Below are positions 14,724 through 15,048 of a stretch of 25,810 nt of DNA, piece by piece (within the stretch, counting starts at the first letter, position 1; each line of letters starts with the position of its first letter). The stretch lies in IMG/VR virus record IMGVR_UViG_2548876964_000006, positions 1-25,810 of that record; one strand, given 5' to 3'. The position numbers and the translations under genes are program-made. The notes below the pieces were generated by a model, which saw only the letters and a list, made by a program, of their open reading frames with translations, did not search any database and had not been told where the DNA came from. The stretch comes from a virus. Lineage: Duplodnaviria > Heunggongvirae > Uroviricota > Caudoviricetes.

Positions 14724-14743
14724 TAAATTGTGTTTTTTAACTA
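14714..14743 (+). promoter_or_regulatory. C1-operator-like site (TTTGCTCTAATAAATTG, 15/17) with -35 TTGCTC and -10 TAACTA, overlapping the pacB stop
   Basis: Same geometry as the sites at 1403 and 24820. Confidence 0.5.
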
Positions 14744-14854
14744 CCGATGTTACATTGAGCCTGACCTCTTGCGCCTTGAGGCATTTTCGGTTTATGCTTA
14801 TCAGGCACCTCATTAAAACGGGTGCCGGGATTGGCCTCCCGCTTAAGTCTAAGG

Positions 14855-14889
14855 CGATACAGACGCCGCTCGCGTCTTTTTTTGTATCG
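14855..14889 (+). terminator. intrinsic terminator inside the leader
   Basis: AGACGC-CGCTC-GCGTCT hairpin followed by 7 T, nested in an outer CGATACA / TGTATCG stem, about 110 nt downstream of the predicted start site. Confidence 0.55.
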
Positions 14890-15048
14890 GCGTACACGCA
14901 CACCTCTACAATGGTGGGCTGTATGGGGCTACCTTCGGGTAGGCTGGTTACCTTGGACGCCAGTAAGGCCAACTCCGTACAGTCCACCGCCAGCAAGATT
15001 GGTCTCTTCTGCGGTGGTTACATACCAACGTCTAAGGAGGCTGCCAAT

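Follow-up and report, generated by a model that had tools for sequence, protein, structure and literature searches.

The closest described system is the immI region of P1 and P7, in which a C1 operator is followed by two promoters, the a1 and b1 sequences, a terminator-like hairpin, c4, the a2 and b2 sequences, and an icd gene that overlaps ant; the region lies between sim and kilA. The C4 RNA of P1 and P7 acts in trans and defines heteroimmunity. Citron and Schuster reportedly described in 1990 how C4 is released from a precursor RNA and confers immunity in P1 and P7 by repressing ant in trans, and Hartmann et al. are said to have found in 1995 that RNase P carries out this processing in P1. 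The specificity of immunity is set by two segments of C4, called a' and b', a principle common to these phages and, probably, to the locus described here.

A second system is the isrK-STnc1160/orf45-anrP locus of the Salmonella prophage Gifsy-1, from which IsrK was defined and where isrK, a terminator, and a C4-family RNA precede an antirepressor gene and a b2 sequence lies over the ribosome site. The same arrangement is present in the window (the whole 25,810-nucleotide stretch of phage DNA analysed here). Upstream of anrP in a Gifsy-1 type locus we found matches to isrK, C4 (69 bits), and c4-a1b1 (48.1 bits), ordered as in the window. The Gifsy-1 locus yields a short RNA that ends at the terminator as well as a read-through mRNA, and a processed RNA, STnc1160, lies downstream of IsrK; translation rises more than 100-fold when IsrK is supplied in trans, and mutations of a1 in cis raise, rather than lower, basal translation (PMC4825925). 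Binding of IsrK to Hfq and trans activation of translation of the read-through mRNA have been shown only for Gifsy-1 (PMC4825925). Two pairs of compensatory mutants, G28/C162 and G31/C159, map to a1 and a', and the base pairs that they validated correspond to the a1:a' pairing present in the window (PMC4825925). The authors of that study read the C4 region as orf45 and likened it to P4 CI/seqA, not to P1 c4 (PMC4825925). The IsrK system of Gifsy-1 and the C4 system of P1 are the same device, and mutational data are therefore transferable between them. Gifsy-1 is, however, a lambdoid prophage that lacks icd and a C1 operator and encodes a different antirepressor protein, whereas the window cassette has icd and an operator-like site.

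Modules of isrK and C4 that are about 80% identical to window positions 14806–15063, and in the same order, are found in Stx-converting lambdoid phages. Both noncoding RNAs are annotated in one of these, LC710660, APSE phages also have isrK and C4 modules, and the co-occurrence of the two families has been reported (PMC7313666). The Stx and APSE modules differ from the window cassette in their a'/b' code and in the downstream gene, which is Rha or another antirepressor-type regulator instead of icd-ant; their promoters also differ, because the homology begins at the 5' end of isrK. In satellite phage P4 (CI) and in P22 (sar), as is proposed here for the C4 of the window, a small phage RNA restrains an anti-immunity function. 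P4 CI, with seqA and seqC, acts by transcription termination, and P4 has neither icd nor ant; P22 sar, which accompanies ant, is a true cis-antisense transcript. The P4 CI RNA arises by processing of a leader and is flanked on either side by copies of its target (cited in PMC4825925). The RNA family search gave no sequence or model match to P4 CI or P22 sar.

Comparison of the window with these systems leads us to conclude, with a probability of roughly 0.87, that the leader 3' of pacB is the control region of an extra, paralogous P1 immI-type c4-icd-ant cassette with an isrK-type leader variant. The region runs collinear with P1 immI through a C1-operator-like site, two candidate promoters, a1/b1, a terminator, C4, a2/b2, icd, and ant. 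All the elements annotated in P1 immI align with a counterpart here, namely Oc4, P2c4, P1c4, a1, b1, c4, a2, b2, icd, and ant1. The original prediction, of a regulatory structured RNA region that controls an antirepressor and is akin to the small-RNA control of P1, agrees with this collinearity and with the isrK and C4 matches upstream of icd-ant. It had assigned the region to a different locus from that of P1, which is correct as to location, since the cassette follows pacB and lies beside c1; what is present there, however, is a whole immI-type cassette as a paralogous extra copy, and the leader is part of that cassette and not a spacer between pacB and an antirepressor cassette. An ant insertion between pacB and c1 has already been published (PMC6906374). 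The leader contains two curated RNA families in tandem, isrK and C4, and is not a new attenuator; because it belongs to an extra copy of the already known small-RNA immunity switch of P1, the region is real but ordinary. The single new RNA of about 135 nt that had been envisaged is replaced by full-length matches, both above cut-off, to isrK (RF01394, 14805–14882) and C4 (RF01695, 14907–14994). A search for tRNA and tmRNA found none, and such readings were excluded.

The upstream end of the cassette is marked by a C1-repressor operator-like site, TTTGCTCTAATAAATTG, on the plus strand at 14714–14730, the positional equivalent of Oc4/Op51 of P1 immI. With a matrix built from 15 annotated P1 operators, this site scored 20.0 bits, inside the span of scores given by genuine P1 operators, and ranked fifth in the window. 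The sites that rank above it, and the one just below, lie in P1-homologous parts of the window, and their sequences are those of annotated P1 operators. When the site was aligned with P1 Oc4, TGCTCTAATAAATT was invariant in four cassettes. A promoter had been proposed at 14714–14743; those positions are instead occupied in part by the operator-like site, and the alignment places the hexamers further downstream. The candidate equivalent to P1 P2c4 (formerly P51a) lies at 14728–14756 on the plus strand, with a −35 hexamer TTGTGT (14728–14733), a 17-nt spacer, a −10 hexamer TACATT (14751–14756), and TG at 14748–14749. The candidate equivalent to P1c4 (formerly P51b) lies on the same strand at 14769–14798, with TTGCGC and TATGCT separated by 18 nt and a predicted start near 14805, which is where the isrK model begins (position 1) and the homology to Stx phages sets in on its left side (about 14806). 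A sigma-70 consensus scan of the plus strand from 14000 to 15800 reported no promoter, these two candidates included; both are weak matches to the consensus and are promoters that we infer from the alignment. From the position of the operator, C1 control would be exerted on the upstream candidate.

The IsrK-like RNA is assigned to 14805–14883 (plus strand) from the RF01394 match at 14805–14882 and the minimum free energy (MFE) fold. The match scored 60.8 bits against a cut-off of 50, with E about 1e-11 over the whole window, and covered model positions 1–77 of 77, the 3' terminator included. The parts of this RNA are hairpin 1 (14805–14825) and hairpin 2 (14826–14841, with a1 in its loop), both given by the MFE fold, a linker bearing b1, and an intrinsic terminator. 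The segment alone was not unusually stable (z = −0.93), and its reverse complement folded better (z = −3.92). Among the collected loci there were 65 homologous copies, of which 15 were distinct; when genome contigs were scanned with an isrK-consensus pattern, one metagenome contig matched, without an Rfam match. The element lies directly upstream of C4 and the antirepressor gene and is complementary to C4 through a1:a' and b1:b'. By its score it is isrK-like, unlike the c4-a1b1 type (RF03163) of P1/P7 immI, for which 14792–14845 gave only 20.5 bits, below the cut-off of 46.7. In Gifsy-1, c4-a1b1 passes its cut-off while overlapping isrK, from which it follows that these models represent variants of a single element; the upstream element of the window would work like a1b1 although it is filed under isrK.

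The terminator, AGACGC-CGCTC-GCGTCT, forms a plus-strand stem-loop at 14861–14877 with a run of T's to 14883; it was found by a terminator scan and matches the terminator hairpin of the isrK model. The plus-strand scan reported exactly one terminator-like site where 1.9 were expected in shuffled sequences, so that the count itself is no more than chance. A longer stem, CGAUACA/UGUAUCG, encloses the terminator, as had been claimed for 14855–14889, and the 46-nt fold has a ΔG of −16.1 kcal/mol (z = −2.35). With its short loop, the window terminator looks by inspection stronger than that of P1. A short transcript, also expected from the outset, should result from this terminator.

The C4-family antisense RNA was identified at 14907–14994 (plus strand) by the RF01695 match, the MFE fold, and covariation. 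The match scored 75.9 bits (cut-off 45; E = 1.9e-13 over the whole window) and covered model positions 1–87 of 87. The MFE fold is the family consensus, in which an outer stem of 16 bp encloses hairpin 1 (cUUCGg loop, 14929–14942) and hairpin 2; its energy is −41.6 kcal/mol, with z = −3.53 on the plus strand and −1.15 on the minus strand. The CTACC-TTCG-GGTAG hairpin noticed earlier is thus present, but as C4 hairpin 1 and not as a separate element. The fold is common to P1/P7 and the window, the window C4 being 2 nt longer in hairpin 1. Across loci, 100% of the cells in C4 stems were paired and 11 of 27 pairs were compensatory; none of 500 shuffles reached the observed values, and the pairing collapsed in slid controls. 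These pairs were counted on a gap-free alignment and on per-sequence folds, since the MAFFT alignment misplaced the 2-nt length difference of the P1 type. Folding and covariation thus showed the structure of the leader to be strongly conserved among relatives, which is the opposite of the lack of conservation that the original prediction had named as evidence against itself.

Two segments of C4 are available for pairing with other RNA. The b' segment, TTACCTTGGACG (14948–14959, plus strand), consists of the 10-nt loop of hairpin 2 (14949–14958) with its closing pair, recognises b1 and b2, and is hypervariable; neither the MFE fold nor the family consensus pairs the loop. The a' segment, TAAGGCCAAC (14964–14973, plus strand), consists of 8 nt unpaired in the MFE fold (14965–14972) and one paired base on each side, and recognises a1 and a2. 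The a' and b' sequences (AGGCCAA and CCUUGGAC) differ from those of P1/P7, and the code that they form also differs from those of the other two cassettes borne by the same kind of plasmid.

Each segment has a target copy on both sides of C4, all on the plus strand. Upstream, a1 (TTGGCCT, 14831–14837) forms 7 Watson-Crick pairs with a', and b1 (GTCTAAGG, 14847–14854) pairs with b' at 8 positions, one of which is a G-U. Downstream, a2 (TTGGTCT, 14999–15005) forms 7 pairs with a', one G-U, and begins 6 nt 3' of C4 (offset +5), as in all isrK-type cassettes; b2 (CGTCTAAGG, 15029–15037) forms 9 pairs with b', one G-U, and overlaps the icd Shine-Dalgarno sequence, just as the b2 annotated in P1 does. 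The calculated energies of the duplexes with C4 are comparable, being −12.4 and −11.3 for a1 and b1 and −13.9 and −8.6 for a2 and b2. Comparable sites occur by chance in the window at 3.3e-4 per nt for b and 1.1e-3 per nt for a, and at these rates four sites in the right order would be very unlikely by chance. The 86 icd-linked loci contained nine forms of b' and six of a', and in every form b1/b2 or a1/a2 were altered to match, at fixed positions. By analogy with P1/P7, a' and b' would set the specificity of the lock.

A self-contained cis attenuator or riboswitch-like leader, in which alternative folds would choose between termination at 14861–14883 and read-through with no RNA acting in trans, fits these pairings poorly, and we consider it improbable. 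The partner of the covarying segments is the ribosome site, which lies 150 nt beyond the terminator, and not the terminator itself. A genuine intrinsic terminator does separate the promoters from the genes, just part of the transcripts pass the equivalent terminator in Gifsy-1 (PMC4825925), and a1/b1 pair with a'/b' in cis in the full-leader fold, which means that alternative conformers exist; the terminator hairpin is nevertheless intact in that fold. No competing antiterminator helix was found, and the RNA family search gave no match to a riboswitch or attenuator even at E up to 10, so that the classical attenuator of the original prediction is not borne out. The C4 of P1 and P7, moreover, is the trans-acting determinant of heteroimmunity.

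Downstream of b2, the icd-like gene occupies 15049–15270 on the plus strand and encodes 73 aa that are 80% identical to P1 Icd (NCBIfam phage_ICD_like, 49.8 bits). Its ribosome site, AAGGAGG, is present as had been predicted, but at 15033–15039 rather than 15036. The icd stop codon overlaps the ant start codon in the sequence ATGA (15267–15270). The ant gene (15267–16301, plus strand) encodes an antirepressor of 344 aa that has a Pfam ANT/KilAC domain (E = 8e-31) and, over 271 aa, is 75% identical to P1 Ant1. In the window ant is chimeric: positions 14501–15525 match the pacB-c1 copy of pE2865-1, and positions 15076–16600 match its dbn-gene 5 copy. In nature, then, this leader and the 3' end of ant may be parts of different cassettes. 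The window has the look of a circular contig closed across two paralogous cassettes; the 25.6-kb circle may be a genuine excision product or a collapsed repeat.

The leader was present in 375 of 5,426 complete E. coli genomes. C4 was found upstream of icd in 86 of 88 loci; of the remaining two, one had no upstream sequence and the other had a deletion. One search for related loci gave 80, a sample biased towards close relatives. RCS47, JL22, 673R5, and pE2865-1 carry this cassette in addition to canonical immI, and a single plasmid may have up to three paralogous cassettes. Such redundancy, the loss of the whole leader in the relative L023, and the G-U wobble in each of the b'-b1, b'-b2, and a'-a2 pairings might suggest an immI duplicate that has become inactive and is decaying, its RNA motifs being functionless relics. 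We regard this as very improbable: the two RNA structures and the two open reading frames are intact, as are the operator, the ribosome site, and all four of the target sites; the leader is at least 99% identical in 118 records of complete E. coli genomes; and its specificity is unlike that of the other two cassettes, as a working independent lock requires.

That the leader instead encodes a protein, either of the Ash family or as an N-terminal extension of Icd, is scarcely credible, for although the icd frame is open from 14638 to 15270, Pfam Phage_ASH (PF10554) matches its translation across isrK, C4, and a2/b2 (44.2 bits; cut-off 26), RefSeq annotates an "ash family protein" across the stretch, and every cassette type has within C4 an AUG (14911 here) that shares the frame of the icd AUG, RefSeq marks the ash coding sequence as an incomplete pseudogene, RCS47-type and most P1-type leaders close the frame with a stop codon 18 or 33 nt ahead of the icd start codon, the reading frame from the C4 AUG ranges among forms from 14 codons to fully open, the leader types differ by a 2-nt indel in C4, and the substitutions compensate RNA stems and intermolecular pairing without a codon pattern. 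PF10554 appears to model the conceptual translation of the RNA module, and the RefSeq pseudogene label placed on that module is an annotation error worth correcting.

On the reading of the region as an additional immI-type cassette, its operation can be pictured from P1/P7 and Gifsy-1; transcription starts, terminator efficiency, C4 processing, and repression in the window cassette would all follow by analogy with those systems. Transcription would start at two tandem promoters, the downstream one near 14805. Because the C1 operator overlaps the upstream promoter, this promoter should be off in a lysogen. Most transcripts would end at the terminator (14861–14883), yielding an IsrK-like RNA about 78 nt long that includes a1 and b1. 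Read-through transcripts would contain C4, which would be excised from the precursor (by RNase P in P1), and pairing of its b' and a' with b2 and a2 would block translation of icd. Expression of ant, which would be translationally coupled to icd and Rho-sensitive, would then be blocked as well, no antirepressor would be made, and C1 repression, with lysogeny and immunity, would hold. Since the IsrK-like RNA offers equally good target copies, it could act as a competitor for C4 and lift the block, in the manner of IsrK acting in trans in Gifsy-1.

This last step can be extended to a model in which the IsrK-like RNA is a trans-acting anti-antisense that titrates C4, giving each cassette a three-RNA switch of mimic, antisense, and target, with up to three such switches operating orthogonally. 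We put this forward tentatively and lean somewhat against it. In P1, a1 and b1 are annotated as putative targets, and the rise in basal translation caused by cis mutations of a1 in Gifsy-1 runs counter to the prediction of a pure decoy model.

There is little that is new in the components, as curated Rfam models detect both RNAs and the mechanism has been studied in P1/P7 and Gifsy-1. The identical leader is found in more than 100 finished E. coli plasmids. Three C4-gated antirepressor cassettes with different codes can share one P1-like phage-plasmid. If the three-RNA model is true, the isrK family of Rfam would be unified with c4-a1b1, and orf45/STnc1160 of Gifsy-1 with C4; immunity would be combinatorial, each antirepressor paralogue answering to its own key alone. 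The codes of plasmids with several cassettes bear on superinfection immunity and on the coexistence of phage-plasmids that spread resistance genes.

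The leader (14724–15048) is bordered by the stop codon of pacB (13230–14723, + strand) and by the ATG at 15049 of a small icd-like + strand gene, followed by a 344-aa gene, ant (15267–16301, + strand). The whole window was scanned against Rfam at curated thresholds, as the original prediction had proposed. Exactly two matches were obtained, both full length, on the + strand and within the leader: isrK (RF01394; 14805–14882; 60.8 bits, cut-off 50) and C4 antisense RNA (RF01695; 14907–14994; 75.9 bits, cut-off 45). A permissive scan added only c4-a1b1 (RF03163; 14792–14845), which was below threshold and overlapped the 5′ half of isrK, and a search of the window for tRNA and tmRNA genes found none. 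The leader had been predicted to be an attenuator or one processed RNA of ~135 nt; it does encode structured RNA, but as two Rfam families in tandem, isrK and then C4.

The features on which that prediction was based were found, and its interpretation of them was partly right. The terminator, which the isrK model contains as its 3′ hairpin, has its stem-loop at 14861–14877 and a T-run reaching to 14883, and a longer stem encloses it in the fold. It was the sole terminator-like site on the + strand, compared with 1.9 in shuffled sequences, and thus by itself is no more than expected by chance. The cUUCGg hairpin expected near 14925 (CTACC-TTCG-GGTAG, 14929–14942) is hairpin 1 of C4, and the ribosome-binding site AAGGAGG, the Shine-Dalgarno sequence of icd, lies at 15033–15039, within a few bases of its predicted position. 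The minimum free energy fold of the C4 segment was identical to the family consensus (−41.6 kcal/mol), with a z-score of −3.53 on the + strand versus −1.15 on the − strand. For the IsrK-like segment (14805–14884), the sense strand was not better than shuffled sequences (z = −0.93); its reverse complement on the − strand was far better (z = −3.92, −33.3 kcal/mol).

Phage P1 immI is annotated in the order Oc4 (Op51), P2c4, P1c4, a1, b1, c4, a2, b2, icd, ant1. When the leader was aligned with P1 immI and two further cassettes, the order of elements was identical and the operator core TGCTCTAATAAATT was invariant. The sequence at 14714–14743 had been taken for a promoter, but no + strand site was reported by the promoter scan. 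Because 14714–14730 scored 20.0 bits with a weight matrix made from 15 annotated P1 C1 operators, within the range of real operators, we conclude that the supposed promoter is chiefly a C1-operator-like site. This site ranked fifth in the window; the higher-scoring sites and the next one down are sequences of annotated P1 operators. An additional operator-like site was present on the − strand at 5258–5274 (15.3 bits). Alignment with the P1 hexamers placed two candidate + strand promoters, TTGTGT/TACATT (14728–14756) and TTGCGC/TATGCT (14769–14798). The latter predicts a start near 14805, where the isrK match starts at model position 1 and where homology to Stx phages sets in. The proteins also resemble those of P1: the small protein is Icd-like (NCBIfam, 49.8 bits; 80% identity to P1 Icd), the ant product has a KilAC antirepressor domain (75% identity to P1 Ant1), and their genes overlap by ATGA, as the P1 genes do.

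Recognition segments and targets were located within this framework. C4 contains unpaired b′ (14948–14959), in the loop of hairpin 2, and unpaired a′ (14964–14973). Upstream, the partner of b′ is b1 (GTCTAAGG, 14847–14854) and that of a′ is a1 (TTGGCCT, 14831–14837), within the isrK hairpin 2 loop; downstream, the partners are b2 (CGTCTAAGG, 15029–15037), which overlaps the Shine-Dalgarno sequence, and a2 (TTGGTCT, 14999–15005), all on the + strand. Sites of equal quality occurred in the window at 3.3e-4 per nt for b and 1.1e-3 per nt for a, so four correctly ordered sites are very unlikely to arise by chance. We then compared 88 loci that surround icd homologues or cassette copies, taken from public phage, plasmid and viral contigs. 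C4 lay at a fixed distance upstream of icd in 86; of the other two, one had no upstream sequence and one had a leader deletion. C4 was represented by 17 different sequences and the leader by 39, with nine forms of b′ and six of a′, and for every form both target copies were altered to match at constant positions. Pairing in the C4 stems was complete (100%), and in 11 of the 27 pairs both bases had changed, values reached by none of 500 shuffles; shifted controls collapsed. The structure is thus conserved in relatives, as the original prediction required. In the specificity type of the window, one G-U wobble is common to b1-b′ and b2-b′, and another occurs at a2. All 27 sampled loci with this C4 sequence (window included) have these wobbles, which points to a single tolerated change on the C4 side and not in its targets. 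In one viral contig (L023, 1140–1200), isrK, C4 and a2 are absent, and a coding sequence, possibly pacB by position, abuts b2 and the Shine-Dalgarno sequence ahead of icd. Such a natural deletion should leave icd-ant without an RNA lock.

A protein-coding leader of the Ash family is suggested by a Pfam match of the translated leader (Phage_ASH, PF10554; 14794–15084) and by RefSeq, which calls an "ash family protein" over it. However, the reading frame is closed in most relatives, RefSeq itself labels the CDS an incomplete pseudogene, and the substitutions track RNA pairing. In one collected locus (L091, 471–701), such a pseudogene exactly spans both RNA genes; Phage_ASH, or its annotation, seems to be a translated noncoding RNA module (isrK, C4 and a2/b2). 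An AUG at the 5′ end of C4 (14911 in the window) is in frame with the icd AUG in all cassette types, at 129 or 138 nt, and the intervening frame is open in some types only, among them that of the window, in which an extended Icd of 119 aa would result. The leader is unlikely to be a self-contained attenuator or riboswitch: no such RNA family was matched, no antiterminator competing with the terminator was found, and the segments that covary are directed at the ribosome site and not at the terminator. Nor is a decaying relic likely, since every part is intact and widely conserved.

The tandem RNAs recur in Gifsy-1, in which IsrK was defined, with anrP as the antirepressor gene. There (L094, 34131–34329, − strand), a C4-family RNA (69 bits) comes immediately after isrK (79.3 bits) and ahead of anrP, the c4-a1b1 model passes at 48.1 bits overlapping isrK, and b2 overlaps the anrP ribosome site as read from the sequence. 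From the overlap and the adjoining C4-family RNA, we identify "orf45/STnc1160" as a C4 homologue. When placed on the sequence, pairs G28-C162 and G31-C159, validated by mutation (Hershko-Shalev et al.; PMC4825925), are a1:a′ pairs. In that system the IsrK terminator stops a fraction of transcripts, the mRNA produced by read-through is translationally silent, translation is activated >100-fold by IsrK supplied in trans, and a processed RNA is present downstream of IsrK; the authors' own comparison was with P4 CI/seqA, not P1 c4 (PMC4825925). APSE phages have been reported to carry isrK and C4 together, and both are annotated in some Stx phage records. Rfam places isrK outside the C4 clan. The cassettes formed two leader groups: P1-type leaders, which score as c4-a1b1 (for example, those of P1 immI and of the dbn-gene 5 cassette in pE2865-1), and isrK-type leaders (among them those of the window, Stx phages, RCS47 and the second D6 cassette). 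We conclude that these are two variants of one device.

By analogy with P1/P7 and Gifsy-1, a switch with this anatomy, complementarity, covariation and homology would work as follows. The upstream promoter would be repressed by C1. Transcripts from the downstream promoter would mostly stop at 14883, giving an IsrK-like RNA carrying a1 and b1, and read-through would yield C4, processed out of the transcript; in P1 this processing is done by RNase P. C4 would mask the icd ribosome site through b′-b2 and a′-a2, and with icd blocked, the coupled, Rho-sensitive ant would not be expressed. The IsrK-like RNA would compete for C4, and its calculated duplex with C4 was as good as that of the real target. 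A pure decoy role for a1/b1 does not predict the rise in basal expression that a1 mutations caused in Gifsy-1 (PMC4825925), and what a1/b1 do in cis may be more than this.

The window itself behaves as a circular contig, with bases 25–251 identical (100%) to 25584–25810. Its gene order is pmgS to pacB, the cassette, and gene 5 to pmgS; in P1, gene 5 is 19.5 kb ahead of pacB. The cassette is chimeric: its matches in pE2865-1 are the pacB-c1 copy for 14501–15525 (99.3%) and the dbn-gene 5 copy for 15076–16600 (99.5%), with junctions at about 14713/14724 and 16334–16375. The circle looks as if it was joined via ~450 bp common to two cassettes, either as an excised recombination product or by assembly collapse over the ~450-bp icd/ant repeat, and for this reason the leader and the 3′ part of ant should not be taken as a natural pair. 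Bases 1–30, an inverted copy of about 25302–25331 outside the terminal direct repeat, look like an assembly artifact. The ~5.4 kb at 2294–7699 (between the pmgT-like region and pmgU; a dozen ORFs) has no P1 counterpart, and its flanks align to P1 85183 and 85182.

The leader was present in 375 of 5,426 complete E. coli genomes, with 118 records at ≥99% identity. Besides canonical immI, RCS47, JL22 and 673R5 have this cassette between pacB and c1; an ant insertion with two short ORFs at this place was already noted by Venturini et al. (PMC6906374). Plasmid pE2865-1 (NZ_AP018809.1) has three c4-icd-ant cassettes, at canonical immI, dbn-gene 5 and pacB-c1, and its three C4 copies (L088, 2767–2852; L089, 6425–6512; L090, 4065–4150) have three different codes, with b′ CAUGUAC, CACAAUC or CCUUGGAC and a′ CUGUCAA, CUGCUAA or AGGCCAA. 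Most of the pairing energy comes from the b′ loop, and there cognate duplexes were far stronger than noncognate ones. We conclude that the element is an additional C4/IsrK switch of the immI type, carried by a P1-like phage-plasmid.
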